Assembly (NCBI GenBank): GCA_963773925.1
Contig: CAVZDC010000001.1
Coordinates: forward strand, 248,167 to 312,166
From: Pirellulales bacterium
Lineage (GTDB): Bacteria > Planctomycetota > Planctomycetia > Pirellulales > JADZDJ01
Reading direction: 5' to 3'
DNA length: 64,000 nt
Shown: in pieces, positions 417 through 60,496 of the stretch
How the letters are laid out: each line of letters opens with the position of its first letter
Position numbering within the stretch: the first letter of the stretch is position 1
Position numbers and translations under genes: made by a program
The notes under the pieces: generated by a model
What the model saw: the letters and a program-made list of their open reading frames with translations, nothing else
Databases searched by the model: none
Told to the model about the DNA's origin: nothing

Positions 417-3293
417 ATGTCGCGCCGCACGTCAGCATCTCGTTCCCATTCTTCGCGCAAAGCTGCCAATTGCAGACCTCGCCAGCGCATTCCCCTGGTG
501 CGCTATTTCGAAGCCCTCGAGTCGCGCCGTCTGTTAACGGTATTTCACCCGCTGGCCTCCGTCGCCGACGTCGCCGGCGGCGATCCCAACAGTTTGCGCC
601 CGCCATCATCGCCGCCAACAGCAACAACAAAAACGACACGATTCAACTTCAAGCCGCCACCTAATCACTGGCCGCCGCTAACTCCTCAGGCCAGGAAAAC
701 GCCGCCGTCGAAGGCGATCTCGATCTGACCAACGACAACGGCCACAGCATCACGATCGTCGGCAAAGGCGCCAACAAAACCTACATTGATGCCGCGGGGG
801 TCGATCGCGTGTTCCAAATCTTCTCCGGCGTCACCGTCACCTTCAAAAACCTGACTATCACCGGCGGGCTGGCGCAAGACGACGGCTCGCCTGGCGCTGT
901 CCGACACCACCGATGCTGAAGGCGGCGGCATTCTGAACTTCGGCGGAAAAGTTACGCTGCAAAATGTAGTCCTCACCGATAACTTCGCCCAGGGCGGTCT
1001 CGGGCCCGCGGCCGTGACCGACGGCAACAACGGCTTCGATGGCCTTGGCGGCGGCACTTATTCCGACGGCGGCTCGCTGACCATTCAAAACAGCACCTTC
1101 TCGTACAACCAAGTGCGCGGCGGTAACGGCGGTCCCAGCGGCGCACCTACCTTTGCCGTCGGCGGCGGCCAGGCCGCGGGCGGCGCGCTCGCAACCGACG
1201 GTGCTCCAACCCTCAAAATCAGCAATTCGAAATTCATTGGCAATCAAGCCCTCGGCGGCACAGGGGCGGCAGGAAATGGTGGCAACGGCGGCGATGGCGG
1301 CGATGCCTTCGGCGGCGCGTTGGGTATCGGCGTCGCATTGAACCTCACCAATTGCACGTTCTCGCAGAACCAGGCCATCGGCGGAGCGGCGGGAGATGGC
1401 GACGTCAACTCCACCGGGGGCAATGGCAGACTGGGCGGCGGCGCGGTCGGCGGAGCCATCTTTGCCGTCTCGATCCTCTCGCTCAACAATTCAACCTTGG
1501 TCCACAATAGCGCCACCGGTGGAAAAGGCGGCGACGGCGGCGACGGCGCCGTCGGCGGGTCTGGCGGCGGTGGCGGAGCCGCCGACGGAGGCGCCATGGC
1601 CGTGACCGGTAATTTCTCCGCGACAAAATCCACGCTCTCGTTTAATACAGTCACCGCCGGCGATGGTGGCGTGGGAGCTGGCGCCAGCGCCGGCGGCGGC
1701 AATGGAGGAAACGGAGGCATCGCCCTGGGTGGCGCACTGGAAGGCGAAGCCTCCATCACCCTCGCCAGGTGCAATCTCTGTTCGAACGATCTCACGGGAG
1801 GCAAAGGCGGCGATGGCGGCGGCGCCTACGGAAATCCTGGCTTCGGCGGCGCCGGCGGATCCGCCCAAGGCGGTGCAATCCACGACGGCTCGATCTCGAC
1901 CGTGACGCTGATCACCACGAACGTCTGCAAAAATACCGCCACCGGCGGCGACGGCGGCGCAGGCGGCAACGGCAATCTCGCTGGCGGAGTCGGCGCCACC
2001 GGCGGCGACGGCGGCTTTGTAGAAGGCGGTGGAATCGACGCTGGCGGTAGCGTCACACTCAATAAATCGTCAACCGTCTCGCAGAATGAACTCTCTGGCG
2101 GCAACGGCGGCAATGGCAACGAAAACGCGGCCGGCAAGGGGGGCAACGGCGGCTACGCCGATGGCGGCGGCTTGCTCGCGCAAAGCGACGCGACCGTGAT
2201 TAATTCCTGCGTCTTCGCCAATCTGGTTACCGGCGGCGCAGGGGCGCCGGCGGCAGCGGTGCGCCCGGCGGAGATGGCGGCGATGGCGGTGGCGCCTTCG
2301 ATGGCGGCGTGGGCGCCAATGACGCGATCCTCTTTAAAAAATCATGCGCCTTCAACAACATCGTCACGGCCGGAGGCGGCGGCAGCGGCGGAGATAGTTC
2401 CACCGGCGCCGCGGGCTCAGGCGGCGACGGCGGCGCGAACAGGCGCCGGCGGTGCTGGCGGCGACACTTCGCTGACAGCCACGAATTCCATCTTCCAAAG
2501 GAATTCTGTGACCGCCGGCAACGGCGGCCTGGGCGGCACCGGTGATTCCGCAGGCGGTAACGGCGGAACCGCGTACGGCGGCGGAATCGGCGCCGCTCAC
2601 GAGGTCCATCTCACTACGTGCGATGTCTCGAACAATTACCTCTACGCCGGCCAAGGCTCCTCCGGAGGTGCCGGCGATACAGGCGGCGCAGGCGGCAACG
2701 GCGGCGACGCTTTCGGCGGCGGCATCGAGTCGCCGACCTCGGTGACTCTGTCGCACACTACGGTGCTTTCGAACGTCGCCATCTGCGGCAATGGCTCCGT
2801 CGGCGGACTTGGCACTTCGGGCAACGGCGGCGCGGGCGGCAATGCCGGGCTTGTCCAAGGCGGCGGCGTTTACTCCACAGGACCCGTTTCGATCTTCCAC
2901 TCGAACGTGTCGAAAAATAAAGCTCTCGGCGCCAACGGCGCGGCCGGAGGCGGCGGCACCGTCAACGGCGGCGACGGCGGGGACGGCGGCGATGCCAACG
3001 GTGGCGGAATTTACACCGGCGATACGCTGACGATCCAACATTCCACCGTCTCTCACAATGCGGCCAATGGCGGACCGGGAGCGACTGGCGCCGACGGCGG
3101 CTCGCGCACTGGTGGAAACGGCGGCGACGGCGGCGATGGTTTGGGCGGCGCGGCCTACCACGTCGGGGCGGTGACCGTCACCGCGTCCAACATTTTCGGC
3201 AACACCTCCCTCGCTGCGGGCGGTGGGGCAGGTGGCTCCCCCGGCGGCGCTGGCGGCAACGGTGGCTTCGGCGATAGCGGCATTTACCCGTGA
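417..3293 (+). CDS. secreted Gly/Asn-rich parallel beta-helix repeat protein (Pmp-like GGAI / FxxN repeats); reading frame disrupted, possible pseudogene
   Basis: ATG 417 gives MSRRTSASRSHSSRK...RYFEALESRRLLTV. The sense reading runs through ORF-track pieces 312-728, 470-664 and 1014-3293: ...NSLR/PAIIAANSNNKNDTIQLQAAT*SLAAANSSGQENAAVEGDLDLTNDNG.... Frame changes lie near 597, 888, 2240 (GGGG run) and 2440, and there is an in-frame TAA at 662-664. Repeats of about 45 aa follow the pattern T(L/I)xNSTFxxNxAxGGxGGxGGxGGxAxGGAI. Confidence 0.6.
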
Positions 3294-3297
3294 CGAC

Positions 3298-3340
3298 GCC
3301 ACTCGCCTATTGACCACTAGCCACTAACCACCGGCCACTC
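3298..3340 (+). repeat. tandem heptamer tract (NNCCACT x5) directly after the beta-helix gene stop
   Basis: gccactc ... gaccact agccact aaccacc ggccact. I found no inverted partner nearby. Confidence 0.6.
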
Positions 3341-11098: not shown

Positions 11099-12392
11099 TT
11101 TGCGTTTTGATGTATTCCACCGCGCGCTCCAGTGGCGGATCGTGTTTCAAATCCTCCGCGGTTGTCTCGCCGGCCGCGGCCGCCGCTGCGTGCGGCTTGA
11201 GCACGTCCCGATCTCGCCGCCACAGCCGCCACTGTTTCCAGTCGTCGTCACTCATTATCACGCGGTCCGCCGGCGCCGGCGATACGCCCCACGACTCTGT
11301 CCCCTTGCCATCCGGCGGGCGCTGAATGTTCTTGCCGCTGGGTCGCCAATAGTCGGCCGTGGTGAGCTTTAGCATGCCGCGCCCGCCCTGCAGAGGAATC
11401 ATGTTTTGCACCATGCCTTTGCCATAGGTGCGCTCGCCAATGATGACGGCTCGGCCATTATCCTCTAGACAGGCTGCCACAATTTCACTGGCGCTGGCCG
11501 TATTGCCGTTCACAAGCACTGCCAGGGGCAGATTCAGGAACTTTTCGCCGTCGGTGGCCTTGTAGTCCGCCTTGATTTGCTCGCCACGGCCGCGAACCGT
11601 CACAATTTCCGCGCCGGCCGGCAGAAACATATCGCACACGCCCACCGCCGCCGAGAGCAATCCGCCCGGATCGTCGCGCAGATCGAGAATTACGCCTCGC
11701 ACGTCCTCGGAGCGAAGTTCTTGTAGCGCCGCTTTCACCTCGGCGGCCGTTCGCTCGCCGAAGATCACAATTCGCAGGTAGCCGATCTTCGGATGTTGCT
11801 CGATGAGAAAACTCCAACGATCCTCCTCGCCGCGCAGGTCGCCTAAAACGGAATCGACTTTGATCACTTCGCGCTCGATCGGAGGCAATTCGATCGGCTC
11901 GCGCTGGCCTTGCCGCTCGACGGTCAGTTGCACCGTGGTGCCCGGCTTGCCGCGCAGCCGCTGGGCGATCTCGGGAAATCTCATGTCGGCTGTCGACGCG
12001 CCGTCGATTTTCGCAATTACGTCGCCGGCCAGAATGCCCGCCTCGTAAGCCGGCGTGCCGGCAATCGGACTGATCACCGTTAGTTTTTTACTGTCGGGAT
12101 CCATCCCCACTTCCACGCCGATGCCGCCGAACTGCTGATCGAGTTCCCCTTCCAACTGGGCCGCATCATTGGGGGCGAAATACTCGGAATAGGGATCGTT
12201 CAACGACTCGAGCATGCCCCGCACCGCCCCCGCCCACAATTCATCACGATCGACGCGCCCCACATAGCGGCGTTCGATCAGATCGGCAATCTCCGAGAAC
12301 GACCGCCCCAGCGGATTGTGATCCGCCGCTTGATAGCAGGCCAGCGACACCGCAGCCACCGCCAGGATGACAATCAGATTACGGCGAGGCAT
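11037..12392 (-). CDS. ctpA: C-terminal processing peptidase, S41 family, with PDZ domain
   Basis: Intact 451-aa ORF. PDZ segment GGIGVEV...ISPIAGTPAYEAGILAGDVIAKIDG. S41 catalytic region NGNTASASEI...TYGKG. Confidence 0.85.
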   Translation of the reverse strand: MPRRNLIVILAVAAVSLACYQAADHNPLGRSFSEIADLIERRYVGRVDRDELWAGAVRGMLESLNDPYSEYFAPNDAAQLEGELDQQFGGIGVEVGMDPDSKKLTVISPIAGTPAYEAGILAGDVIAKIDGASTADMRFPEIAQRLRGKPGTTVQLTVERQGQREPIELPPIEREVIKVDSVLGDLRGEEDRWSFLIEQHPKIGYLRIVIFGERTAAEVKAALQELRSEDVRGVILDLRDDPGGLLSAAVGVCDMFLPAGAEIVTVRGRGEQIKADYKATDGEKFLNLPLAVLVNGNTASASEIVAACLEDNGRAVIIGERTYGKGMVQNMIPLQGGRGMLKLTTADYWRPSGKNIQRPPDGKGTESWGVSPAPADRVIMSDDDWKQWRLWRRDRDVLKPHAAAAAAGETTAEDLKHDPPLERAVEYIKTQIRASSGQQAAGRERGAAASG

Positions 12393-12399: not shown

Positions 12400-12489
12400 A
12401 ATGCCTAAATGACTAAATGACGGAATGACTAAATGAAAAAGCAATTCAGGACCCATTTAGACATTTAGGCCTTCAGACATTTAGTCATT
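12400..12489 (-). terminator. long imperfect hairpin with tandem CTAAATGA-unit arms, downstream of rpsI
   Basis: Left arm aatgcctaaatgactaaatgacggaatgactaaatga. Right arm catttagacatttaggccttcagacatttagtcatt. Outer and inner thirds pair almost perfectly. No clear U-tract follows. Confidence 0.55.
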
Positions 12490-12537: not shown

Positions 12538-12951
12538 CTACCGCTTCGAGAACTGCGTGCCACGCCGTGCGCCGCGCAAGCCGTATTTCTTGCGCTCTTT
12601 CATGCGGCCGTCGCGGGTCAATAGGCCCGAGTGACGCAGCATGTCGTCCAACTCGGCATCGAACGCCCGCAATGCCCGGGCGATGCCCAACTTGCAAGCC
12701 CCGGCCTGACCGGCGGGGCCGCCGCCTTTAACCGCGATCGAAACATCCACCGTGGCGAGCTTGCCGGTTTGATTCAGGGCATCGTACACGTGGAAGCGAT
12801 CCTTCTCGGACGGAAAGTAGTTTTCCACGGCGCGGCCGTTGATCTCGATCTTGCCGCTGCCGGCCTTGATGCGAACGCGCGCCACGGCGGTTTTGCGGCG
12901 TCCGGTGGCCAGGGTGTAATCGCCGATCTTGGCTGGTGCGGCAGTGGACAT
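12538..12951 (-). CDS. rpsI: 30S ribosomal protein S9
   Basis: 137 aa, ...GRRKTAVARVRI...GGGPAGQAGA...RDGRMKERKKYGLRGARRGTQFSKR. Confidence 0.95.
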   Translation of the reverse strand: MSTAAPAKIGDYTLATGRRKTAVARVRIKAGSGKIEINGRAVENYFPSEKDRFHVYDALNQTGKLATVDVSIAVKGGGPAGQAGACKLGIARALRAFDAELDDMLRHSGLLTRDGRMKERKKYGLRGARRGTQFSKR

Positions 12952-15547: not shown

Positions 15548-15597
15548 CCGGCGTGAGGCTACGCCGGCTCAGCCTACCGCGTACCGCCTACCGCTCC
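15548..15597 (+). repeat. left arm of the inverted repeat bracketing the pnt operon (tandem CTACCGC units plus a local 7-bp stem-loop)
   Basis: ccggcgt-gaggct-acgccgg stem at 15548-15567, then cctaccgc gtaccgc ctaccgct ending 2 nt before ATG 15598. 15584-15595 (ccgcctaccgct) is the exact reverse complement of 18705-18716. Confidence 0.6.
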
Positions 15598-25698: not shown

Positions 25699-27612
25699 AT
25701 GCCACGAAATCCCGAGCGTTCCGCGCCTGCCACTGCCGTGGCCGCCAATCTTTTGCTTGCCGCCGAAGGAGCTACCGGCACAACGCAGTATCTGAATGAA
25801 ATCTTCCCTGCGCTAGTGCCTGCGCTGTGGGCCGATTTCGCCGCCGTAGTGCGGCCGGAAGGCCAAACATTTCGCACATTGGCCGAAACCGGCATTCATC
25901 AATCCTGGCCGTCGGAACTTGTGTCGGAATGTCTCGATCGTGAAGCTCCGCAATCGTCCGGCCCGTGGTTGGCGGCGCCGCTTGCGCCGCGCGAACCCGG
26001 CGGTGAGGTGCTGTTAGTTCACCGATCCAATGCCGCCCCTGCTGAGCGATCACTTCCCCAAGACTTCGAGCCAATCGTTGACGCGCTCGGCGCGGGATTG
26101 CGGATCGTCCGCGCACGTCAACGATTTCGCAAGCGCGCCACGCAGGCCGAAACCATCCTGTCGATCGTTCAGCAATGGGGCCGCACGCAGGAAATGCAAC
26201 CGCTATTGGAGCAAATGGCCACCGCCTCCACGCAATTGCTCGAAGCCGATCGCGCCAGCATTTTTCTCTGGGATCGCACCAATCACTTGTTGATCGGCCG
26301 CCCGGCCTTGGGTGTCAAAAGTGGCGAACTGCGCGTGCCCGACAATGCCGGCGTCGTCGGCGAAGTATTGCGCAGTGGCGAGCCGCGCCGAGTTTCGCAG
26401 CGCGACAAAATCGATGCCATCAATCGCCGCATCGACGCCCAATTGAAGTACCAAACCCGCACCCTGCTGGCCGTGCCCCTCCGCAGCGCCGGCGCCGAAA
26501 TGCTGGGCGTCTTCGAAGTGCTCAACAAAAAGGACGGCGATTTCAGCTCCGAGGACGAAGCGGCGCTGCTGGAATTGGCCACCCACGCCGCCGTGGCCCT
26601 GGAAAACACCCAGGACCGCCAACATCTGCTGGCTTCCCACCGCCAAATGGTCGACCAGGCCGCCGAGCATGTGCGGCTCATCGGCGAAAGTCCGGCCATC
26701 GAGGCGCTGCGCTCCACCGTGCGCCGTGTGGCCGATACCGACCTGGCGGTGTTGGTGCTCGGCGCCAACGGCACCGGCAAAGAGGTCGTGAGCCAATTGA
26801 TCCACTATCTTGGTCCGCGCCGCGATCGTCCCTTCGTCGCGGTCAACTGCGCCGCCATTGCCGAAACACTTTTGGAAAGCGAATTGTTCGGCCACGAAAA
26901 AGGCGCCTTTACCGACGCCCACGAATCGCGCGCCGGCAAATTCGAACTGGCCACCGGCGGCACGCTGCTGCTGGATGAAGTGGGAGACCTCAGCCCCGGC
27001 GGTCAGGCCAAGCTCTTGCGCGTGCTCGAAGAAAAAGTCGTGCTGCGCGTCGGCGGGTCGCGACCCATTCCCGTCGACGTGCGCGTGATCGCCGCCACGA
27101 ATCAGAATCTGGCCGACCTGGTGCGCGCCAAAAAATTCCGGCAGGATTTATATTTCCGTCTGAATGTGGTCGTGCTGGAATTGCCGCCGCTAGCCGATCG
27201 CGGCGACGACATCCTGCGGTTGGCCGAACATTTTCTCGCCGAATTTTCACATCGCGCTCGCCGCAAGCCGCCGAAATTTTCGCACGAGGCCAAAAAACGC
27301 CTGCTCGGGCACCCTTGGCCCGGCAATGTACGCGAACTACGCAATTTGATGGAACGGCTGGCCTTCCTGGTGCCCGGCGACACCGTGGAACCGGGCGACT
27401 TGGCCTTCATCATGTCTCCCTCTCAGGAATCGTCCGGCCTGTTGGTCGTCGATCAGCCGTTGGGCTCCGCGACCGACCGGTTTCAGACAGAATACATTCG
27501 CAAAGCCATCCAGCGCGCCGGCGGCAACATGACCGACGCCGCCGACCTCTTAGGATTGCACCGCTCCAATCTGTATCGCAAGATGAAGCAACTGGGAATG
27601 GAAGGTGACTAA
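25699..27612 (+). CDS. sigma54-dependent transcriptional activator with N-terminal GAF-type sensor region and C-terminal Fis-type HTH
   Basis: Intact 637-aa ORF. AAA+ core GANGTGKEVVSQLIH...ESELFGHEKGAFTDA...LLLDEVGDL. C-terminal ...GNMTDAADLLGLHRSNLYRKMKQLG. Confidence 0.9.
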   Translation: MPRNPERSAPATAVAANLLLAAEGATGTTQYLNEIFPALVPALWADFAAVVRPEGQTFRTLAETGIHQSWPSELVSECLDREAPQSSGPWLAAPLAPREPGGEVLLVHRSNAAPAERSLPQDFEPIVDALGAGLRIVRARQRFRKRATQAETILSIVQQWGRTQEMQPLLEQMATASTQLLEADRASIFLWDRTNHLLIGRPALGVKSGELRVPDNAGVVGEVLRSGEPRRVSQRDKIDAINRRIDAQLKYQTRTLLAVPLRSAGAEMLGVFEVLNKKDGDFSSEDEAALLELATHAAVALENTQDRQHLLASHRQMVDQAAEHVRLIGESPAIEALRSTVRRVADTDLAVLVLGANGTGKEVVSQLIHYLGPRRDRPFVAVNCAAIAETLLESELFGHEKGAFTDAHESRAGKFELATGGTLLLDEVGDLSPGGQAKLLRVLEEKVVLRVGGSRPIPVDVRVIAATNQNLADLVRAKKFRQDLYFRLNVVVLELPPLADRGDDILRLAEHFLAEFSHRARRKPPKFSHEAKKRLLGHPWPGNVRELRNLMERLAFLVPGDTVEPGDLAFIMSPSQESSGLLVVDQPLGSATDRFQTEYIRKAIQRAGGNMTDAADLLGLHRSNLYRKMKQLGMEGD

Positions 27613-27622
27613 GCTTCTTTTG

Positions 27623-27729
27623 AACCGCCGAGGCGCAGAGAGGATTGAAGAATCTGCTAAATTAGCCGCCGGGCTCGCCCGGCGTTGCGCAAAATTTCTT
27701 CCCCTCCGCGTCTCTGCGTCTCTGCGGTT
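27623..27729 (+). terminator. composite hairpin with GCGCAGAGA / GCGTCTCT tandem-unit arms; the loop carries REP family 3 copy 1 (27661-27687)
   Basis: Left arm aaccgccgaggcgcagagagg pairs with right arm cctccgcgtctctgcgtctctgcggtt. Inner element attagccgccgggctcgcccggcgttg contains a perfect gccgggc/gcccggc stem. Confidence 0.5.
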
Positions 27730-27746
27730 ATTTTGATGGGTGACTT

Positions 27747-29225: not shown

Positions 29226-29392
29226 GCCTGGCCCCTTGCGCCGAGCATGCAGACGCAAATCCCGGCGATCGGTCAAACTGCGAGAATAGAAGGCCACATT
29301 CTAGCGGGCTAGCGGGCTAAACTCGCTTGAGAAGCAATTGCCCGCGCGGAAAGAAAGAATACCGACCAGTCCGTCGAGCGCAGCCTTCCAAA

Positions 29393-42527: not shown

Positions 42528-43970
42528 ATGGCTGAATGGGATGCGGAACAAATTGCTCAAAGCGCTCTCGATCGGGATTTGATCACCGAGCGTGATCTGC
42601 GCGATATCTGGGGCGAGTTGGGAACCGGCGAAGTCGATCCCGAAAAGCTCAAGCAGTTGCTGTTGCGCCGTGAGTTCGTCACCAACTATCAGCTCGAGCG
42701 CCTCCTCAGAGGCGAACGCTCCGGCTTCTTCTACGGCCCCTATAAGATCCTGTACCTCGTCGGCACAGGCACGTTCGCCCGCGTGTTCCGCGCTATGCAC
42801 AAAGAAACCCGCGAAGTGCGCGCCGTCAAAGTGCTCCGCAATCGCTTCCTTAGCGAAAAGGATAAACGCGAGCAATTCGTCCGCGAAGGCGAAATGGGCA
42901 TCACCCTGCGGCACCCGAACATCGTGCCCATCTACGAAGTCGCCAACGAAACGATCTATTGCTATCTGGTCATGGAATTCATCGAAGGCTACAACCTGCG
43001 CGAATTCTTGAAAGTCCGCAAGTTCGAGCCACCCGACGCCACCCGCCTGGCACTCGATGTATGCCGCGGACTCGATTACGCCTTCCAGCGCGGTATCTCG
43101 CACCGCGATCTGAAATCATCCAACGTATTGGTTTCCAGCTTGGGGCAGGCCAAGCTGGTCGATTTCGGCTTGGCCGGCGCCGATCCGGATCTCAGCGACG
43201 CCGAACTGGCCAAAATCGAAAACCCCCGCACCATCGATTACGCAGCCCTGGAGCGCGCCACCGGCGTTCGCAAAGACGATAGCCGCAGCGATATCTTCTT
43301 CATGGGCTGCATGTACTACCACATGCTCACCGGCAAGCCGGCCATGGAGGAAACCCGCGACCGCATCGCCCGCCTCAGCCGCAATCGCCTGGAATCCATC
43401 GTGCCCATTACTCAACTGTTGCCCGATCTGTCCAGAGACGTGCTGCTGGTCGTGCAAAAAGCCATGCAGCTCGATCCGTACCTGCGCTATCAATCGCCGG
43501 GCGAAATGGTCACCGATTTGCAAATCGTCCACGAGCGCCTGTCCAGCGGGGGAGACGGCGATGCGCGCGATCTGGCGGAAGCCCGCAAGCGCCGCACCAT
43601 CATGATCGTCGAACCCAATCCCAACATCCAGGAAACTCTGCGCAACCATTTCAAGGAGGAAGGCTACCGCGTGCTGGTCACCACCGATCCGCAGCGCCCG
43701 GCAAGCCTTTCAGGCGAGAACAAACCGCCGGCCGATTGCGTGATTTTCAGCACCGCCGGCCTGGGTCAAGAAGCCCTCGAGGCCTTCAACAATTTCGGCG
43801 GTCTGCCCGCCACCAAAACCGTGCCCGCCATCTTGCTATTGGCCGCCAAGCACAAAGACTGGGTGAGCCGCGCACAAACCAACGACTGTCACACCACCGC
43901 CACCACTCCCATCAAGATGAAAACACTGATGGAGATGATCGAGTCGCTATTGCCAGCGGAAAAACGATAA
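42528..43970 (+). CDS. serine/threonine protein kinase with C-terminal receiver-like domain
   Basis: VGTGTFARVF...RAVKVL...HRDLKSSNVL...VDFGLAG. The C-terminal ~120 aa (RRTIMIVEPNPNI...DCVIFSTAGLG...AILLLAAKH...PIKMKTL) has a CheY-like beta/alpha pattern. Confidence 0.85.
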   Translation: MAEWDAEQIAQSALDRDLITERDLRDIWGELGTGEVDPEKLKQLLLRREFVTNYQLERLLRGERSGFFYGPYKILYLVGTGTFARVFRAMHKETREVRAVKVLRNRFLSEKDKREQFVREGEMGITLRHPNIVPIYEVANETIYCYLVMEFIEGYNLREFLKVRKFEPPDATRLALDVCRGLDYAFQRGISHRDLKSSNVLVSSLGQAKLVDFGLAGADPDLSDAELAKIENPRTIDYAALERATGVRKDDSRSDIFFMGCMYYHMLTGKPAMEETRDRIARLSRNRLESIVPITQLLPDLSRDVLLVVQKAMQLDPYLRYQSPGEMVTDLQIVHERLSSGGDGDARDLAEARKRRTIMIVEPNPNIQETLRNHFKEEGYRVLVTTDPQRPASLSGENKPPADCVIFSTAGLGQEALEAFNNFGGLPATKTVPAILLLAAKHKDWVSRAQTNDCHTTATTPIKMKTLMEMIESLLPAEKR

Positions 43971-44040
43971 ATGCTAAACATAAATGCTAAACGAGCGTTC
44001 GCCCGCATTACATTTATCGTTTAGCGTTTATCATTTTTCG
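43958..44040. terminator. hairpin with ATAAATGCTAAAC x2 arms spanning the kinase stop codon and abutting the UDG stop
   Basis: Left arm ggaaaaacgataaatgctaaacataaatgctaaacg. Right arm catttatcgtttagcgtttatcatttttcg. The arms differ only by three transitions over about 28 nt. Confidence 0.55.
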
Positions 44041-44043
44041 TTC

Positions 44044-44872
44044 TCACAGCTCCACCCCCTGTTGCCGCATCAGCAACTTCAAGTCTTCCCAAGCATCCAC
44101 CTTCGCCGCCGGATTCCGCAGCAGATACGCAGGATGATACGAGCACACCACCGGGATTCCGCGATACTGATGCACTTTCCCGCGCAGCTTCCCGATGCCT
44201 TGCTCGGTGCTCAGTAGCGCCTTCGACGCCACGCTGCCCAAGCAGCAGATGATTTCCGGATGGATGATCTCCAACTGCCGCTCGAAATAACCGCGGCAAT
44301 TGGCCACCTCATCCGGCAGCGGATTGCGATTCTCCGGCGGTCGGCACTTGAGCACGTTTAGAATGTACACGTCTTCCCGCTTGAGCTTGCACGCCGCCAG
44401 CATTTTGTTCAACAACTGTCCGCCCCGCCCGACAAACGGTTCGCCCAGCCGGTCTTCGTCCGCCCCGGGCGCTTCGCCAAAGAAACAAATCTTCGCATTG
44501 GGATTGCCCACGCCAAACACCGTTTGCGTCCGGCTATCGGCCAGCACCTTGCAGCGCGTGCACGCCGCCACTTCACAGCGCACCACTTCCAGGGCGGCCG
44601 CGCTGCTCCGGCGCCACCAAATTCTCCGCCGCCGGCCCATCAAACAGCGACCGCGCCACAACCCCGCTTGATGTCCTCTCCTCATTTAGCCGCCGGGCTT
44701 GCCCGGCGTGAACTCCCTCTCCCTCAGCCAGAGGGCCGGGGTGAGGGTGTTTCGCTTGCGCTGCCTTCCCTTTCGGCAACTGCATCACCCCCGCCTGCTC
44801 CAAACTTTCCAACTGCTGAAGCACAACGCGCTCGACCTTTTTCCTCGGATCAGCCGCGGCTTTACTCATCAT
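44044..44872 (-). CDS. uracil-DNA glycosylase, family 4, with N-terminal extension (one frameshift near 44595)
   Basis: GEAPGADEDRLGEPFVGRGGQLL...KCRPPENRNP...HPAYLLRNP. N-terminal MMSKAAADPRKKVERVVLQQLESLEQAGVMQLPK... (ORF 44573-45025) joins at ...APEQ/SAAALEVVRCEVAACTRC. Confidence 0.8.
44685..44748. repeat. REP family 3 copy 2 (44685-44710) plus REP family 2 copy 1 (44713-44748), lying in frame inside the UDG N-terminal linker
   Basis: tttagccgccgggcttgcccggcgtg + ctccctctccctcagccagagggccggggtgagggt. Translated on the minus strand as ...KHPHPGPLAEGEGVHAGQARRLNE.... Confidence 0.65.
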
Positions 44873-44973
44873 TGGCTCCTTGCACATTGACACCGCTCCC
44901 AGTATACGGAACGGCTGAAGACTGGGAATCCCGCCGCTTATTCTCCATTCCACACTCCCCATTCCCCATTCGG

Positions 44974-46142
44974 ATGCCCGATCCCCTCGCCTGGCTCGAC
45001 GACGAATTAGCGGCGCTGGACGCACAGCACCTGCGCCGCCGGCTCGTCACGCGCTCGGGCCCGCAATCCGCCACGATCGAAATCGACGGCCGCACGCTCA
45101 TCAACTTCGGCGCCAACGATTATCTTGGCCTCGCCGCCGATCCGCGCCCGGCCGCCGCAGCCGCCAAAGCTGCTCAGCAAGAAGGCTGGGGCGCCGGCGC
45201 CAGTCCACTTGTCACCGGCCACTCAGTCTCGCACACCGAATTGGAACGGCGTCTCGCGGAGTTTGAAGGCACTGAAGCAGCACTGGTATTCACTTCCGGC
45301 TTCGCCGCCAACCTCGGCACAGTCGCGGCACTGGTTGATCGAGAGGATGCGATTTACGCCGACGCCAAAAATCACGCCAGCCTCATCGACGGCTGCCGAT
45401 TATCCCGCGCCGAAGTGCACGTCTACCGCCACGCCGACGTCGATCACTTGGCCGAACTGCTCCGCGATTCGTCTCGCTATCGCCGCCGCCTGATCGTCAC
45501 CGACACACTGTTCAGCATGGACGGCGACCTTGCGCCACTAGATAAAATCGCCGAGCTTGCCGAAAAACACTCCGCCATGCTGATGGTCGATGAAGCCCAC
45601 GCCACCGGCGTCTTCGGCGCAAAGGGGAGGGGAGTCGCCGAACATCTCGGCATCGAACGCGGCATCCACATCCGCATGGGCACGCTCAGCAAAGCACTCG
45701 GCTGCGCCGGCGGTTTCGTCGCCGGCAGCCGCAATCTGATCGATTGGCTCGTAAACCGCGCCCGCTCCTACATCTTCTCCACCGCTTTTCCGCCGGCCGT
45801 CGCCGCCGCTGCCATTGCCGCGCTCGACATCGTGCGCGACGAGCCGAATCGCCGCCGCGAACTGCTCAATCGCGCCGCAGCACTGCGCACCAGCCTGATC
45901 GCCCAAGGCCACAACATCGGCCGCTCACAAAGCCAAATCATCCCCATCTACCTCGGCGACCCCGAGCGCACCATGAATCTGCGCAATCCCTGCGCGACCG
46001 CGGCCTCTTCGTCCCCGGCATCCGCCCCCCCTCGGTCCCCGCCGGCGAATCGCTGCTGCGCCTCAGCCTCAGCGCCCCTCACACGCCGCAAATGATCGAA
46101 CATTTACTGAACGCACTGAGCCAACCGCCCTCTTCAAAATAG
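44974..46142 (+). CDS. bioF: 8-amino-7-oxononanoate synthase (one frameshift near 45980)
   Basis: MPDPLAWLDDELAALDAQHLRRRL...NDYLGLA...DEAHATGVFG...GTLSKALG (PLP lysine). The C-terminus ...SLRDRGLFVPGIRPPSVPAGESLLRLSLSAPHTPQMIEHLL is in ORF 45744-46142. Confidence 0.85.
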
Positions 46143-46180
46143 CCGGATGGGCAACGCCCTCCGGAGCACCGCCAAAAAAA
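46135..46180. repeat. REP family 1, copy c, overlapping the bioF stop codon
   Basis: caaaatagccggatgggcaacgccctccggagcaccgccaaaaaaa. Confidence 0.7.
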
Positions 46181-46574
46181 TCCTCCAACGTCGTTTAGCC
46201 GCGACGCGAAGTCCTCGTAGCGGAGCGCGTAACAGAGCCCGCAGCGCAAGCAAGGGACCCCCTGGCCCAAAAACTTCCTTGCCAATTGAGCCACTTTCGT
46301 GCTAAGACAAACCCAGACGATGCGGCCAATTGAGCTCAGCCAAAGTAGCAGGGCCGACATAGGAAGTCCGCCACTGGCGTGCCGACATCGGGAAGCCTTT
46401 CGCCGCCTGGGATTGCCGTGCCACGGGGTTAGCGTGGGCAGAAACACAACTCGGGGCGGTCACCATCAGGCACTAACCCGCGTGCTCGCTGCTCAAGTAG
46501 CAGTCGGGCAGGCAAGCGAGAAAGCCGGCTGGCTTTGATCCCGGTCGACGCTTGTCGGCGACGGTTGGTTGTAA

Positions 46575-46610
46575 CCCCTCTCCCTCCCAGGGAGAGGGCG
46601 GGGTGAGGGT
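46575..46610. repeat. REP family 2 (CTCTCCCTC...GAGGGC-GGGGTGAGGGT), copy 2
   Basis: cccctctccctcccagggagagggcggggtgagggt. Compare 44713-44748. Confidence 0.65.
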
Positions 46611-46960
46611 CGTGGCCAATACCACAGACAGCTCTCCACACAACCTCGCGCACCGTCGTTATTTTTTAAGGCCCGACTGCGAAAAAGCAGCGAGCGCCAA
46701 ATTTCCCTAAGCGCTTTTTCCCGCGCCAATGCAATTCCGCGCGCCGCGTCTAGCCCCTTGGCCGAAAGGGCGAAGCTCCCGCCGAGCCGAAATCAACATT
46801 CAAATCACTCTCGCGCAAAGGCGTAGGGAAAAAGAAGTCGAATTCCGAAAATTAAATCCCTTCCCTGCTCCGCGCTCTCTGCGCTCTGCGCGAAACCTTT
46901 CTGCCCTTCTCAGCGCTGGGCGCCTTTGCGTGAGAGAATTCGGGGGCCTCAAGCAGCCAA

Positions 46961-46989
46961 TTGCTGCTGCGGATTGCGACCTGTATAAT
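46961..46989 (+). promoter_or_regulatory. sigma70-type promoter candidate TTGCTG-N17-TATAAT for gap
   Basis: TTGCTG at 46961-46966 and TATAAT at 46984-46989 (preceded by TG). AGGAGA at 47034-47039, 7 nt before GTG 47047. Confidence 0.45.
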
Positions 46990-47019
46990 TTGCGGTTCGC
47001 ATCAAATCGAAAATGTTGA

Positions 47020-48090
<1,071 letters not shown>

Positions 48091-48102
48091 AGGAGCAGTG
48101 AA

Positions 48103-49133
48103 TCATCGCGTCGGCGACCAGCCTGGCGTGCCGCGCTCAGATCGTTGTGATGCAGCGGACGCAGTCTCGGTCGGATCGTCCGCGCGATTGGGTTCGTACA
48201 CGCTGCGGTGATCGTTCTGGCGATCCTCCTCATTACCGGTCAGCGAGGTCTTCGATTTCCGCCATTTGCCCGGCCCCTCGTCGGCCAACTGCACCTCGAT
48301 CGGCAAACTGGCATCCAATCGCCGGCCATCATACGTCGTAAATCGCACGAATAGCCGCAAATCGCTGTGCTCCGGCGGCGTCGACCAGGGCAGCTCGAAA
48401 TGCAGCGATCCGCCGTCGCGATTGCGGCGCACGTGCCGCGCCACTTCGTCGGCATCGAACTTCCATCGGCCGATCCGCGCTCGGCTTTTCGGCAGGGCCG
48501 GATCGACCACCACGATCGTCACATCGCCCGGCGCCAGCACGCGGCCGTCTTGGCCGTCGCGCTGTTCGATCACGACGCTCAATTGTTCGTTGCCGGGCTG
48601 GCCTTCGGCATCGATGCCGCCATTCAAGCCCGGGTCGAGCACGATATGATCAACATTCGCGTCCGCATTCATCCGTTCCGCCGGGCGCAGTTGGCTCTTG
48701 TCTGGCCCCACGCCGGACGTCTGCGCCACGTCGAATTTGGACGGCACCGCGGAAGATCGAGGCGCCGGAGCCGAGCCTGCGCGCTGGGCGGCGCTTCAAT
48801 TCCCGGTTCCACGCTCGGCAGGGGCGGTATTGCCGGCAACCGCGGCGCCGTTCCGCCAGCACCGCCCGAGGGGGCGCTTCGGTCCGGTGCGCCGCCGGGT
48901 CGCTCGCGCAAAACGTCCGCCTGCCGCTGCAACGAATCCGCCTGCGCTTTGGCAGCTTCCAGTTCGCGCTGCGTATCTTCCAGTTGCCATTTCAGACGGT
49001 AAATGCAGTCTTCCTCCAGGCGCAGCTCGCGCTGGAGCAATTGCTGGTTGACACGCGCCTGATACAGGCACCCCGTCGACAGCGCAAGGGGCAACAAAAT
49101 GGCAAGCAGGCCCGTTCTCATATTTCGCCTCAT
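48103..49133 (-). CDS. lipoprotein with N-terminal coiled coil (one frameshift near 48760)
   Basis: Lipobox LLPLALSTGC in ORF 48669-49133, followed by LQRELRLEEDCIYRLKWQLEDTQRELEAAKAQADSLQRQ. The C-terminal domain is in ORF 48103-48747. Confidence 0.55.
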
Positions 49134-49180
49134 GCGTAAAAACGGACAGCCACGGCATCATGCCGCGGCATGCAAACTAT

Positions 49181-49267
49181 CGAATGACCAATGACCAAGC
49201 ACGAATGACCAAAGGGTCGAAGCGCAAATAATAATTAGTCATTGGGATTTGGTCATTGGTCATTGCG
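49181..49267 (-). terminator. hairpin with CAATGAC tandem-unit arms; the right arm overlaps the clpP1 stop codon
   Basis: Left arm cgaatgaccaatgaccaagcacgaatgaccaaag. Right arm ttagtcattgggatttggtcattggtcattgcg. The core aatgaccaatgaccaa pairs perfectly over 16 nt. Confidence 0.6.
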
Positions 49268-49856
49268 TTTTCACTTCCATGTGCTCGATCACCTGATCGA
49301 TCAGCTTATATTCCATCGCTTCCTGGGCCGACATAAATCGATCGCGATCCGTATCCTGTTCGATCTTTTCCAGCGGGTGCCCGGTATGCTTGAGCAAAAT
49401 GGCATTCAGCCGCTGCTTCACTTTCTTGAATTCCTTGGCGTGAATCATGATCTCTTCCGCGGTGCCTTCGGCGCCTGCCAGCGGCTGGTGGATCATCACG
49501 CGGGCATTGGGCAACGCCCGGCGTTTTCCGGCTGCGCCGGCCGTGAGCAACACCGCGCCCATCGAAGCTGCTTGCCCGATGCAGTACGTCGCCACGTCGC
49601 AAGTGACAAACTGCATGGTGTCGTAAATCGCCAGGCCCGCCGACACGCTGCCGCCGGGCGAATTCAAATACAAGTGAATGTCGGCCTTCGGATCCTCCGA
49701 TTGCAAAAACAGCAACTGCGCCACCACGCTGTTAGCCACCTCGTCGTTGATGGCGGTGCCCAGGAAAACGATCCGATCTTTCAGCAGGCGGCTGTAAATA
49801 TCCATCGCCCGCTCTTCGCGGCCCGTCTTCTCGATGACAAAGGGAATTAGGGTCAT
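49260..49856 (-). CDS. clpP: ATP-dependent Clp protease proteolytic subunit (paralog 1)
   Basis: Intact 198-aa ORF. ...[14 protein letters not shown]...[17 protein letters not shown]...[11 protein letters not shown]...MIHQP.... Confidence 0.95.
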
Positions 49857-50504
49857 GCTTTTTCCTCGTCCTCGTCGGTTTGCACCGGCGGCTTGGTGAG
49901 CACTTCATCGACCAGGCCGTATTCTTTCGCCTCTGGCGCAGTGAGGTAACGATCGCGATCGGTATCCTTGGCGATCCGCTCGATCGGCTGGCCGGTGTGC
50001 TTGGCCAGAATCTGATTGAGCGATTCGCGGGTTTTGAGAATCTCGTCGGCTTGAATTTCGATATCCGATACCTGACCGCCCACCTGGCCATACGGCTGAT
50101 GAATCATCACTTTGGCGTGCGACAGCGCGTAGCGTTTCCCCTTGGTTCCGCCGGCCAACAGCACCGCCCCGCCGCTGGCAGCCAGCCCAACGCAGTACGT
50201 GGCCACGGGACACGACAGAATTTGCATCGTATCGTAAATGGCCATCGTGGCTGTCACGCTGCCGCCGGGCGAGTTGATGTAAAAGTGCACGTCCTTGCGG
50301 CGGTTCTCGCTCTGCAGGTAAAGCAGCTTCATCACCACTTCGCTGGCGTTGCCGTCGAAGATTTCGCCCTGCAGCAAAATGATGCGGTTTTCCAGCAGCA
50401 AATCGCCCAGGGTCAGCATCCGCTGCCGCTGATAATCGCGGTACGAGAGGCGCGGATCGATCGGCCCTAATGGCGAAAGCGGCGCTGGCGAAAATGAGAT
50501 TCAT
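49853..50504 (-). CDS. clpP: ATP-dependent Clp protease proteolytic subunit (paralog 2; one frameshift near 50480 close to the start)
   Basis: ...[17 protein letters not shown]...[11 protein letters not shown]...MIHQP.... The frame is open upstream to ...[25 protein letters not shown], but the only ATG (50504) is in another frame. 4-bp overlap with clpP1. Confidence 0.85.
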
Positions 50505-50516
50505 GCTTCCGTCCTT

Positions 50517-50545
50517 GCGATACGCACTCAAACGAATCGTATCGC
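50517..50545 (-). promoter_or_regulatory. 8-bp perfect stem-loop (gcgatacg-N13-cgtatcgc) between tig and clpP2
   Basis: Seen directly in the 51-nt tig-clpP2 spacer. Possible partial terminator or processing site. Confidence 0.35.
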
Positions 50546-50555
50546 CCTGCGAATT

Positions 50556-52050: not shown

Positions 52051-52208
52051 GATGTGGCCGCAATCGATAAGGGGATGTGATTGTTCCGACTGGCTGCAGT
52101 TTACCGACTTGATTCGGCAAAAAAAGGGACCGGCGCCGAATTCGCGCCACCCTGCCGTGTCTGCGTGCGCGGAGAATTCCGGGGCCTGTCCCCCTAACTA
52201 CAGCCAAG

Positions 52209-52281
52209 AGCGGGTGATGGGATTCGAACCCACGACAACCACGTTGGCAACGTGATGCTCTACCAACTGAGCTACACCCGC
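52209..52281 (-). tRNA. tRNA-Gly (anticodon GCC)
   Basis: Reverse complement GCGGGTG TA GCTC AGTTGGTA GAGC A TCACG TTGCCAA CGTGG TTGTC GTGGG TTCGAAT CCCAT CACCCGC T. Full cloverleaf by hand. CCA not encoded. Confidence 0.92.
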
Positions 52282-52354
52282 ACACCGCCTCCGCAATGCC
52301 GCCGCTCCCGGCGCGCCGGGATGCTAGCGTCAGCTCCCCCGAGCAAACTAAGCG

Positions 52355-52382
52355 ATTATAGGTTCGCTCGATAGTGGAGCAA
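52355..52382 (-). promoter_or_regulatory. sigma70-type promoter candidate TTGCTC-N16-TATAAT (minus strand) upstream of tRNA-Gly
   Basis: Reverse complement of 52355-52382 is ttgctccactatcgagcgaacctataat, about 70 nt upstream of the tRNA 5' end. Confidence 0.35.
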
Positions 52383-52559
52383 GGTCAAACTGCCGCCGGC
52401 AGCAAAGCCAATTGGCGCTGGTTGTTAAGCTACGGCGACGGGGGTGGCCCGTCAAGGGGCCGGGGCCCATTCGCACCGTGCACAATCCGCTACGGCCGCG
52501 TCGGCATTCGCCGTCGGCTGTTGCCTTCCGCCTGCCGCTAACCGCCGACTCCCCGCTGA

Positions 52560-52646: not shown

Positions 52647-53074
52647 ATGCACGCGAAACTCATCGTTATCGAACCCAAATTGCAACCCCACGCATACGAA
52701 CTCGAGTTGCCCGTCACCATCGGCCGCGGCGGCGAAGTCGCAGATTGCAATTGGATCATCGTTGATCAGCCGCCATCATTGCGAGCTGTACGAAGAGAAC
52801 GGCCAAATGATGGTCCGCGATTTGGGCTCCCGCAACGGCACGTTCATCCGTGGCCAGCGCGTTGAAACCGCTCCCGTGCCGGCCGGCGAACTGCTGACCG
52901 TCGGCGGCATCACATTCCGGGCAATCTATGGCGAGGAAGCTTTGCTGGCGCCGGAAGGCAAACGATCCGGCGATCGACGCGCAGGGAATCGAAACCGTGG
53001 CGATCGACGAAACCTCGCCCGTTTCCGTGCGGCCCATCGAACGCCCCAGCGATTATTCCCACAAGCTGAACTAG
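52647..53074 (+). CDS. FHA domain protein (two or three frameshifts, near 52745-52760 and 52965)
   Basis: MHAKLIVIEPKLQPHAYELELPVTIGRGGEVAD/LQLDH/PLISRHHCELYEENGQMMVRDLGSRNGTFIRGQRV...APEGKRSG/IDAQGIETVAIDETSPVSVRPIERPSDYSHKLN*. Confidence 0.7.
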
Positions 53075-53081
53075 GGCAGCA

Positions 53082-53167
53082 GGTGAGTAAGGGAGTAAGT
53101 GAGTTGGTAAATTGGCGCATTGGAGTATGCCGTAATCTCTTACGTACTCACCTACTCACGTACTCAC
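53082..53167 (+). terminator. hairpin with GTGAGTAA tandem-unit arms downstream of the FHA gene
   Basis: Left arm ggtgagtaagggagtaagtgagttggtaa. Right arm ttacgtactcacctactcacgtactcac. By hand, about 24 of 28 positions are complementary. Confidence 0.55.
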
Positions 53168-53176
53168 AGCTTGCCC

Positions 53177-53534: not shown

Positions 53535-53551
53535 GCCCGCAATCGGCAGCT

Positions 53552-54973: not shown

Positions 54974-55629
54974 TCACAGCCGCAGCATGTCGAGCAGTTG
55001 CTGCGCCACCGCTTTGGGCGGCACCGCAACAGTTGCACCAGCGGCCAGCCGAGCAACAGCACTCCGGCGGCCAGCAAGGTAAAGCCGCGCGGATTGGGCG
55101 GAACCTCCAGGTTTTCCAACGCCGCGGCCAGCTCGCTGTGCAGCCGCCTCCAGTGCGAAAAACTTTGCTGATCTCCTGTGGCCACCAGCGAAACGCTGCG
55201 CATGGCAGCCGCCGATTCCAAATGAAACTGCACGACGAGCTGGGGCAAATGCACGGCATCGCCCGCCAGGCGTGCATCGCTATCGAGCCGTCGCACGACT
55301 TGTTCCAACACGGGCCAGAGTTGCTTCCGCGTGACGTTGAAAATCACCAGCCGAGGCCGCGCCGTGAGGATATACAACAACACGCACAGAACGTAGAACA
55401 GCGCCAGCAACGCCCAAACGTAAGGGCCGTAGCGAATCGCTCCCGACTCAGGCATGAACAGGTTCAGCGGGCCAACGATGATCATGCCGCTGACGGCCGC
55501 TGCCAGCGAAGCCGCATCGACCGCGCCGCGCAACATCAGCGGCCGCCGCCGCAGATTGATCATCCCCAGGCCCAACAGATAGAACCCCAGCGGAACGCAG
55601 GCGATCGCGAAAGCGGCGGCATTGATCAT
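54974..55629 (-). CDS. hypothetical multi-TM membrane protein (one frameshift near 55030; 3' end inferred)
   Basis: MINAAAFAIACVPLGFYLLGLGMINLRRRPL.... The ORF-track extensions (start 55701, end 54595) overlap the hairpin and amtB and are unlikely to be real. Confidence 0.45.
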
Positions 55630-55704
55630 GGGTGTCTGGTGTCTGGTTGTCTCAAAATTGAGCGTTTCTTTCAGGAACCAGACACCCAGAAACTTAGACA
55701 CCCA
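55629..55704 (-). terminator. hairpin with GGTGTCT tandem-unit arms downstream of the M28 peptidase gene
   Basis: Left arm tgggtgtctggtgtctggttgtctc. Right arm gaaccagacacccagaaacttagacaccca. Several slipped pairing registers are possible. Confidence 0.55.
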
Positions 55705-59407: not shown

Positions 59408-60451
59408 ATGATGATTTCTCAGCCAAGTTTGTTTGCGATCTGGGCTTTGGTGTCCGCCACTTGCGCCGCGGTAAGCTTCGGCGCCGAGCCGCAGATCCGG
59501 CACGGCGAGGTGCGCTTCGAGCCAGTTGCGGATGAGGCTCGTGTCGTGCCGAAGCAGTTCCAGCTTCCGGCCCAAACTTTTTCCTTCGACGAACAATCGC
59601 AGCCCAAGTGGGTGGGCGACGTGACCGTTTCGCTGGTCACGTTCCCCTCGCCGGTGAAAACACCGTATGCCAACAACAACACGGTGCATTGCGAATATTT
59701 CCGCCCCGCGAAACCGGGAAAGTATCCCGCCTGCGTGGTGCTGCACATCTTGGGCGGCGATTTTCCCCTGGCCCGCGTGTTCGCCTACCATCTGGCCCAA
59801 CAAGGCGTGGCGGCCCTGTTCGTGAAGATGCCCTATTACGGCGAACGGCGGCAGCCGGGAGTAAAGATTCGCATGGTGTCGACCAACGCCGAGCAAACCG
59901 TCGATGGATTAACGCAAGGCGTTAAAGACATTCGCTATGCCGCCGCCTGGCTGCGGGCACAAGACGAGGTCGACCCGCAGCAGGTCGGTATTTTCGGCAT
60001 TAGCCTAGGCGGCATCGTGTCGGCGCTGGCGGCCGAGGCCGAACCGCGGTTTACCCGATGCTGCCCCGTATTGGCCGGCGGCGATTTGGGCCAGATCTTG
60101 GCCGACTCGCGGGAAAAACACATCGTCGAAGCCAAGCGTCGTTGGGCCGCCGACGGGCACTCGCTGCCCGAGCTGGTGGACCTGATGAAAACGGTCGATC
60201 CTTGCAACTACGGCACTGCCCTGCAGGCGCGCAAAGTGCTAATGCTCAACGCCAGTCACGACGAAGTGATTCCGCGCCAGTGCACCGAAAGCCTGTGGGA
60301 AGCGATCGGCCGGCCGCCGATTTTCTGGTACGACGCCGGCCATTTCTCCGCGATGCTTTATATCAGCGACGCGCTGGACAAAGTGACGGCCTTCATGGCC
60401 GGCGGAGAAGTTCCAGGAAAGACAGAAGGCAGAATGCAGAACACAGAATGA
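59408..60451 (+). CDS. secreted alpha/beta hydrolase (dienelactone hydrolase / S9-like)
   Basis: Signal MMISQPSLFAIWALVSATCAAVSFG. Nucleophile elbow GISLGG. ...DEVIP...GH. Confidence 0.7.
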   Translation: MMISQPSLFAIWALVSATCAAVSFGAEPQIRHGEVRFEPVADEARVVPKQFQLPAQTFSFDEQSQPKWVGDVTVSLVTFPSPVKTPYANNNTVHCEYFRPAKPGKYPACVVLHILGGDFPLARVFAYHLAQQGVAALFVKMPYYGERRQPGVKIRMVSTNAEQTVDGLTQGVKDIRYAAAWLRAQDEVDPQQVGIFGISLGGIVSALAAEAEPRFTRCCPVLAGGDLGQILADSREKHIVEAKRRWAADGHSLPELVDLMKTVDPCNYGTALQARKVLMLNASHDEVIPRQCTESLWEAIGRPPIFWYDAGHFSAMLYISDALDKVTAFMAGGEVPGKTEGRMQNTE

Positions 60452-60496
60452 ACCAAGGCGACGCCGGTTCTGCCTGCTACTTTCTGCCTTTTCATT
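60418..60496. terminator. hairpin with NNCAGAA heptad arms spanning the stop codons of two convergent genes
   Basis: Left arm gacagaa ggcagaa tgcagaa cacagaa tga (the last hydrolase codons). Right arm ggttctg cctgcta ctttctg ccttttcatt. Nested pairings: aggcagaa/ttctgcct and gcagaac/gttctgc. Confidence 0.5.

Follow-up and report, generated by a model that had tools for sequence, protein, structure and literature searches.

Tandem-arm hairpins in post-stop spacers of a Pirellulales genome segment and their resemblance to dispersed REP-like repeat families

Architecture and position of the hairpins

The 64-kb stretch of Pirellulales bacterium contig CAVZDC010000001.1 analyzed here (~60% G+C; referred to as the window) carries seven long, bulged hairpins in which each arm consists of 2-4 tandem units of 7-8 nt and the two arrays face each other on opposite strands (Table 1). 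Based on Pfam scans and coordinate checks of the flanking open reading frames (ORFs), they lie behind rpsI, a sigma54-activator gene, clpP1, an FHA gene and an M28 peptidase gene, between a kinase gene and a UDG gene, and between the genes of a hydrolase and a PDZ protein. Those ClpP homologues whose source is named carry the label Pirellulales, and an exact look-up of the S41 peptidase protein yielded no record. An earlier note, made from the letters of this stretch alone, had listed eight such structures. Seven of them were recovered with their arrays in place and fold z-scores of -2.3 to -7.3, whereas the eighth, a duplicated short motif at 29301 (z-score -0.95), does not belong to the class and is described in the last section.

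The window was searched with a detector that combines an array called by Tandem Repeats Finder (TRF; period 5-15) with a match of its own reverse complement no more than 80 nt away. Eight loci were returned, compared with a mean of 0.07 per shuffle in 30 dinucleotide shuffles, which supports the earlier observation and places the architecture far beyond chance; seven of the eight are real, and one, at position 1680, was discarded as an artefact of the self-complementary GGCGCC motif. TRF assigns to the seven real loci a period of 7 or 8 and 2.5-4.6 copies per arm, that is, at least two units of about 7 nt. When each locus was folded as RNA and compared with 200 dinucleotide shuffles, the seven reached -27 to -57 kcal/mol, with z-scores from -3.6 to -7.3 for six of them and about -2.5 for the weaker hairpin at 60418. 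The stems are AU-rich, bulged and 19-37 nt long and enclose loops of 13-33 nt, and an inverted-repeat search found several slipped pairing registers at 12400 and 49183, as had been anticipated from the internal periodicity. The only match of Rfam covariance models at gathering score in the window was one tRNA, and the hairpins remained unmatched.

Table 1. Hairpins, arrays and related features of the window, with their gene context (L082-L084 are relatives introduced in the next section)
Feature	Unit	Coordinates	Strand	Flanking genes	TRF arrays	Folding and remarks
Tandem-arm hairpin 12400	AATGACTA/TAAATGAC (AATGAC family)	12400..12489	-	rpsI stop 12538-12540; S41 peptidase ATG 12390-12392; co-directional	12400-12436/12454-12489; period 8; 4.6 + 4.5 copies	-31.9 kcal/mol; z -4.46
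Tandem-arm hairpin 27623	GCGCAGAGA/GCGTCTCT	27613..27746	+	whole spacer, sigma54-activator stop 27610-27612 to HIT gene ATG 27747; co-directional	one row, 27704	-57.2 kcal/mol; z -3.85
Tandem-arm hairpin 43958	GATAAAT/GCTAAAC (13-nt double unit)	43958..44040		kinase stop 43968-43970 (within 5' arm); UDG stop 44044-44046; convergent	one row, 43962	z -5.95 (+)/-7.28 (-); A5/T5 runs flank stem, both strands
Tandem-arm hairpin 49181	AATGACC	49181..49267	-	clpP1 upstream, stop TGA 49260-49262 in first unit; hypothetical gene downstream; co-directional	49183-49212/49234-49265; period 7	z -6.04
Conventional GC-rich hairpin		49149..49169	-	directly downstream of clpP1 tandem hairpin		followed by TGTCCGTTTT; top terminator-like match; kept in L082-L084
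Tandem-arm hairpin 53082	GTGAGTAA/TACTCAC (GTGAGTA family)	53074..53176	+	entire spacer, FHA TAG 53072-53074 to ASCH ATG 53177-53179; co-directional	53085-53104/53145-53167; period 8	z -3.64
Tandem-arm hairpin 55629	GGTGTCT/AGACACC	55629..55704	-	M28 peptidase TGA 55709-55711; next gene ATG 55627-55629 (its A is the last stem base); co-directional	one row, 55631	z -3.84
Tandem-arm hairpin 60418 (weaker)	GCAGAA+N	60418..60496		straddles convergent stops 60449-60451 (+) and 60492-60494 (-); hydrolase/PDZ protein genes	one row, 60423	z -2.32/-2.57; detector score 10.5
Duplicated motif 29301 (not a class member)	TAGCGGGC x2	29301..29319 (29301-29349 as first listed)				z -0.95; detector score 6
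Single-arm array	(GCCTACC)3.3, G-poor on sense strand	15572..15594	+	ends 3 nt before AlaDH/PNT ATG 15598		
Single-arm array	(ATTCCCC)4.6	44940..44971	+	ends 2 nt before ATG 44974		orthologous array L084 14091-14122
Single-arm array	(CCACTAG)3.7	3314..3339	+	upstream of aldehyde dehydrogenase gene; 35 nt before ATG 3375		exception in its distance

All seven hairpins overlap a stop codon or begin 0-48 nt behind one, so that the proposed tie to gene 3' ends holds throughout; the flanking genes are co-directional at five loci and convergent at two, and never divergent. The stop codon is inside the hairpin at clpP1 and at the kinase gene, and the hairpin reaches the next ATG at three loci (53082, 55629, and 12400). 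No T-run follows the hairpin at 12400, 49181, 53082, and 55629, consistent with the earlier observation that most copies lack one; a T-run is present at 27623 (TTATTTTG after the stem) and, on both strands, at 43958, and a partial one at 60418. A terminator consensus scan of positions 43000-62000 called no tandem hairpin, and canonical terminator-like sites in this 43-62 kb stretch were not enriched (24 vs 24.8 in shuffles). Judging from gene order, the copies between clpP2 and clpP1, between tig and clpP2, and between the M28 gene and the next gene probably lie in intercistronic spacers. Considering that four copies have no T-run, that several are probably intercistronic and that a conventional GC hairpin with its own T-run follows the clpP1 element, most copies are unlikely to act purely as terminators, and the claim that all of them mark the ends of transcription units is not supported.

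Unit families and turnover among relatives

Syntenic loci of relatives (L082-L093) were fetched with ClpP1 and an acyltransferase as anchors, in fragments of at most 20 kb each and with a DNA identity to the window of about 77-92%. Conservation at orthologous positions, on which the earlier note had made its proposal depend, was found only in part. At the clpP1 3' end, the AATGACC hairpin of the window is kept in L082-L084; in its place stand a plain GC hairpin in L085 and L086, a long hairpin without tandem units in L087, and GTCGGAA units in L088-L090. In the spacer between the sigma54-activator and HIT genes, the same GCGCAGAGA hairpin occurs in L092 with one additional 8-nt unit, and it is absent from the 18-nt spacer of L091. 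Behind the M28 gene, the GGTGTCT hairpin of the window is opposed by hairpin-free spacers of 10-11 nt in L082-L084, and between rpsI and the S41 gene, the AATGACTA hairpin of the window is replaced by a GCGCAGAGA-type hairpin in L092 and by none in L091. The spacer between the FHA and ASCH genes holds GTGAGTA hairpins in the window, L082, and L084, AATGAC-type hairpins in L085 and L086, and none in L083 and L087, and that between the UDG and kinase genes holds GATAAAT/GCTAAAC hairpins in the window, a member of the same family in L083, a (GCAGAAA)n array in L082 and L084, and a GGTAGGC hairpin in L085. A hairpin between clpP2 and clpP1 is present in L086 and missing from L085. Comparison of such filled and empty spacers, between genomes of about 80-90% identity, shows that the hairpins are gained and lost as whole units and that spacers are re-occupied by unrelated units. 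In addition, orthologous hairpins differ by exactly one unit (7 nt between the L085 and L086 copies), in agreement with the slippage that had been proposed.

The earlier note had also described a shared architecture without shared sequence and used it as an argument against mobile copies of the repetitive extragenic palindromic (REP) kind. Within the 64 kb the units do look unique, but they reappear elsewhere, both in further spacers and in further genomes. AATGAC+N was detected at six spacers, namely behind rpsI and clpP1 in the window, between the FHA and ASCH genes of L085/L086, between clpP2 and clpP1 of L086, and twice in L096, a contig which, like L101 below, comes from a ClpP1 scan of metagenome contigs (among the matches listed). 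Paralogous copies within one genome were seen twice, each time in fragments of at most 20 kb: the two GAATGAC copies of L096 align from end to end, loop included (score 57 vs 11.5 +/- 2.4 in shuffles, z 18.7), and the two AATGAC copies of L086 give a whole-element alignment with z 17.8. The irregular sequence AATGACSAAGCACSAAT is common to the clpP1 copy of the window and L086.

Four further families occupy 2-3 spacers each. GTGAGTA is also found between clpP2 and clpP1 of L101, a contig with a ClpP of only 72% identity; GCGCAGAGA occurs in two L092 spacers with similar ends (AACCGC...GCGGT) and, counting single-arm arrays, as one arm at 46868 of the window; GCAGAA occurs at 60418 of the window, in the UDG/kinase arrays of L082 and L084, and at 11886 of L091; and GATAAACGCTAA is common to 43958 of the window and 854 of L086. 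The recurrence of families together with the whole-element similarity of paralogues points to copying between spacers on top of local slippage, and the argument against a mobile repeat is thereby reversed into an indication of dispersal. Every copy follows a stop codon, and divergent spacers hold none.

Comparison with known repeats and interpretation

The design is not confined to close relatives. In a first control set, 1.34 Mb around ammonium-transporter genes obtained by a contig scan (best match 67% identical, no close relative), about 12 clean tandem-arm hairpins were found, roughly 0.9 per 100 kb compared with about 11 per 100 kb in the window; a second set of 0.53 Mb around clpP genes, among the matches listed, yielded about 16 cases. 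Among the hosts are Pyrinomonadales, Thermoanaerobaculia, Acidobacteriaceae, Bacteroidota, and Ignavibacteria. Of 38 curated hairpins, 23 have a period of 7 or 14 and 7 a period of 8, and the 5' arm contains more G than C on both strands in 27 of 35 informative hairpins (p 0.002, with families counted uncollapsed). In co-directional spacers, this polarity sets the stop-capable arm beside the upstream stop codon and the G-poor arm beside the downstream start codon, and the G-poor 3' arm is similar to the arrays that form single-arm leaders (GCCUACC, AUUCCCC, and CAACUGA). A concentration of stop codons in the 5' arm, by which all six frames would be closed, holds for the AATGAC, GTGAGTA, GATAAAC, and GGTAGGC families and is absent from the GGTGTCT, GCGCAGAGA, and GCAGAA families; it was rejected as a general feature because it was not significant over the 38 hairpins (19 loci vs 13, p 0.38). 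The occurrence across phyla and the polarity with the G-rich arm first suggest a common mechanism.

The class, of which the earlier note knew no description, has a described precedent. Genomes of Xanthomonas campestris and X. citri each contain 70-75 cases in which two GGGAATC arrays, each of two to many heptamers, converge on opposite strands and are able to form a stem-loop; about 90% of them are intergenic, with the upstream ORF at a mean distance of 28 nt, the flanking genes are mostly co-directional or convergent and seldom divergent, and the length of the arrays varies between related species (Rehm et al. 2015, PMC4692102). The hairpins studied here share with these pairs the tandem 7-nt units, the closely spaced convergent arrays, the position nearer to the upstream 3' end, the variation in length among relatives, and the orientation in which the G-rich version comes first. 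However, Xanthomonas uses one genome-wide G-tract unit (GGGANTN), which was studied as a G-quadruplex former, whereas at least seven unrelated units, none with a G3 tract, are present in our 64 kb, units are replaced at orthologous spacers, and whole-element paralogues are seen.

Similarities to other known systems were also evident. Like REP elements, REPINs, and bacterial interspersed mosaic elements, the hairpins are extragenic, present in several families, located after stop codons or between cistrons, and variable between strains. REP elements have tens to hundreds of similar copies per genome; in the fragments of at most 20 kb examined here, two paralogous copies were seen in each of L086 and L096. 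REP arms are imperfect palindromes of 20-40 nt with a GTAG or CGTC head (PMC3733652), whereas the arms here are non-palindromic tandem arrays around loops of 13-76 nt, and no GTAG or CGTC head was found, the stems beginning with AATGAC, GATAAA, GGTGAGTA, GGGTGTCT, CCGCCGAGG, or GACAGAAGG. No RAYT (Y1 transposase) was detected in a Pfam scan of 30 window ORFs or in the Pfam lists of the relatives' loci. Miniature inverted-repeat transposable elements are likewise short, non-coding, built of inverted repeats, and polymorphic by insertion and deletion, but three comparisons of filled and empty sites revealed no clean target-site duplication. Intrinsic terminators, which have a GC-rich stem, a loop of 3-8 nt, and a T-run starting 0-2 nt behind the stem, also place a stable hairpin at gene 3' ends, and T-runs do follow the hairpins at 27623 and 43958; they differ in the bulged AU-rich stems, the long loops, and the T-run missing from four of seven copies. 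TAACTGA direct repeats of Beggiatoaceae, Cyanobacteria, and Bacteroidetes end just before start codons, with one inverted case reported among 170 sets (MacGregor 2015, PMC4679880). These and the cyanobacterial STRR heptamers resemble the single-arm arrays at 15572 and 44940 and the (CAACTGA)5 array before tig in L085, but consist of direct repeats of one dominant unit, whereas our hairpins are inverted pairs after stop codons.

Taken together, the loci may be copies of several dispersed, REP-like families of palindromic repeats that are copied into post-stop spacers, resized by slippage, and retained as RNA hairpins, a reading to which we give about even chances; rather than a new class, they are best regarded as a variant, with several families, of the known inverted heptamer-array and REP-like repeats. 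A new copy would arise when an existing hairpin is copied into another post-stop spacer. Empty sites hold a few bases of the unit at two junctions (TCATT at rpsI and CATTCC in L085), which gives a hint, and only that, of homology-primed copying or template switching rather than a classical transposase as the source of new copies. Replication slippage would then lengthen or shorten the arrays by whole units, and the complementarity of the arms could be maintained by selection on the stem or by template switching within the hairpin. Copies would persist where a hairpin in the transcript is useful or harmless, and the hairpin could possibly block 3' exonucleases, punctuate operons, or, at copies followed by a T-run, assist termination. 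REP elements stabilize the upstream mRNA and affect translation when located within about 15 nt of the stop codon; by analogy with those of enterobacteria, the RNA hairpin here may protect or delimit the upstream transcript.

Several observations weigh against such dispersal or against retention as RNA. In the roughly 300 kb covered, the families occupied only 2-6 spacers each, and some similarities between AATGAC copies across genomes are weak (z 2.9-5.3); four families have TAA or TGA in the 5' arm, so that the recurrence of units may partly reflect convergent selection. No conserved terminal motif or transposase for the hairpins was found in the window or in the relatives' loci, and the filled/empty pairs at M28, clpP2-clpP1, rpsI, and sigma54 revealed no clean target-site duplication; an 8-9 nt repeat, GGTGACTWA, at the sigma54 spacer is partly present in the empty site too. 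Compensatory substitutions were not observed, the conserved arms containing too few changes, and the bias of fold energy toward the transcribed strand was inconsistent across loci.

Among the alternatives, a purely local origin, in line with the earlier note, survives best, and we regard it as a serious but rather unlikely explanation. It holds that each spacer needs a terminator or stabilizing hairpin, that slippage duplicates a segment of the stem, that the second arm is made by template switching or compensatory duplication, and that similar units are convergent (e.g., from an AA-TGA-C stop context). The one-unit indels between orthologues are as expected from it, as are the plain GC (L085, L086) or long non-tandem (L087) hairpins standing where the clpP1 tandem hairpin is missing, the first units that hold the upstream gene's own stop codon at several loci, and the single-arm arrays, which could be precursors. 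Against it stand paralogues that share irregular non-unit and loop sequence (z about 18) and the presence of one family in clpP neighborhoods whose ClpP proteins are only 72-81% identical; moreover, hairpins stand in spacers that are 10-18 nt long and hairpin-free in relatives, implying that no pre-existing palindrome was needed there.

That the repeats are selfish or neutral, without function, and pile up after stop codons as the least harmful insertion site is in our judgment distinctly improbable. Relatives do without hairpins at the M28, rpsI, sigma54, and FHA spacers, and the clpP1 element is followed by a separate, conventional terminator-like hairpin, both of which would suit functionless repeats. 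However, the clpP1 hairpin arms are identical at 63 of 66 positions in L082-L084, whereas divergence reaches about 65% in the loop and 27-31% at third codon positions of clpP1; the arms are thus at least 6 times better conserved than synonymous sites, with the loop free to change. Furthermore, hairpins abut or overlap downstream starts, a place at which stems of -33 to -39 kcal/mol should have an effect.

A role as double-stranded DNA, in which the arms would be inverted arrays of binding sites for a nucleoid protein, recombinase, or regulator, appears very improbable: the conservation of arm sequence beyond pairing and the recurrence of a limited unit repertoire speak for it, but the 64 kb contain at least seven unrelated units, copies differ in the number and spacing of their units, the elements stand strictly behind stop codons and not at promoters, and no candidate protein was identified. 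Finally, an artefact of long-read metagenome assembly or consensus, which several frameshifted window genes might bring to mind as a sign of indel errors, can be dismissed, since the clpP1 hairpin region is identical at 141 of 141 positions in the independent JGI contig L081, orthologous hairpins occur in several other assemblies from different samples, and the same design is found in many unrelated assemblies.

Beyond the dispersal of REP-like families in Pirellulales, one may speculate, at odds well short of even, that these hairpins represent a widespread and so far unnamed class of intergenic elements that propagate themselves in Planctomycetota, Acidobacteriota, Bacteroidota, Ignavibacteria, and Xanthomonas, with a shared design rule (7-8 nt units; a G-rich, often stop-bearing arm first; a G-poor arm beside the downstream start), which spread without transposase hallmarks, perhaps primed by microhomology, and are used as cistron punctuation. 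If the reading as dispersed REP-like families is right, a sizeable share of post-stop spacers in these soil Pirellulales would be shaped by palindromic micro-repeats with fast turnover, and the density in the window extrapolates to hundreds per genome. The over-representation of heptamer repeats in bacteria (Mrazek et al. 2007, as relayed in PMC4692102) has no settled cause, on which the hairpins may bear. For annotation, it matters that hairpins overlap stops and starts and that called ORFs extend across them; the prediction of operons and terminators would be affected in phyla with few canonical terminators, whereas one-unit indels and presence or absence of copies could serve as informative markers for strain typing.

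A probable insertion-sequence footprint, single-arm arrays and other repeats

The motif at 29301, rejected as a tandem-arm hairpin, has no significant fold, and at the exact orthologous point L092 (14868-16318) carries a 1.45-kb insertion sequence with a DDE_5/DDE_Tnp_1 transposase, an 8-bp target duplication (TACCGGGC), and inverted ends TGCACTTTC/GAAAGTGCA. On comparison of the two sequences, the duplicated motif of the window is probably the footprint of an insertion sequence, left either by excision or by a separate element that had inserted at this site and was lost again. The hairpins show no similarity to the ends of the L092 element.

Apart from the array at 3314, single-arm G-poor arrays of 7-nt units end 2-12 nt before start codons. 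The unit GCCTACC at 15572 appears as a two-arm hairpin in L085 (15322-15448). Before the tig ATG, (CAACTGA)n is found in L085 (7597-7632, n=5) and L086 (7489-7510), one base off TAACTGA. At 46808-46936, a large hairpin of -54 to -60 kcal/mol, whose 16-nt outer stem is 94% complementary, surrounds the single-arm (GCGCAGA)n array at 46868-46892; this intergenic spacer is long and differs among relatives. In L082 (12985-13110) and L083 (12975-13110), the region upstream of the GAPDH gene contains three different back-to-back purine-rich arrays of 7-8 nt units (GAGAAAAG, GTGAGCGG, and GGATGTA/GGAGGTA) on one strand and without an inverted partner. Promoter-like hexamers inside the AATGAC hairpins were dropped, as their count was not above that in shuffles.

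Directly before the hypothetical gene downstream of clpP1, a small hairpin or leader, TT(A)CGCATGAGGCGAA..ATG (49119-49145), is kept at orthologous positions in L082-L090, even where the clpP1 3' hairpins differ completely. A long ORF (1014-3293) contains 9-nt coding tandem repeats of GGC type (GGCGGCGAC and variants), whose period of 3n is unlike that of the 7-8 nt intergenic arrays. Five genes are split or frameshifted in the window, namely those of an ammonium transporter (53552-54800), the M28 peptidase (55709-56756), trigger factor (50556-51781), and the ASCH (53177-53631) and FHA (52412-53074) proteins. Each is intact in at least one relative, and long-read consensus indels are probably the cause rather than pseudogene formation; as a consequence, ORF callers read through the hairpin at 53082.

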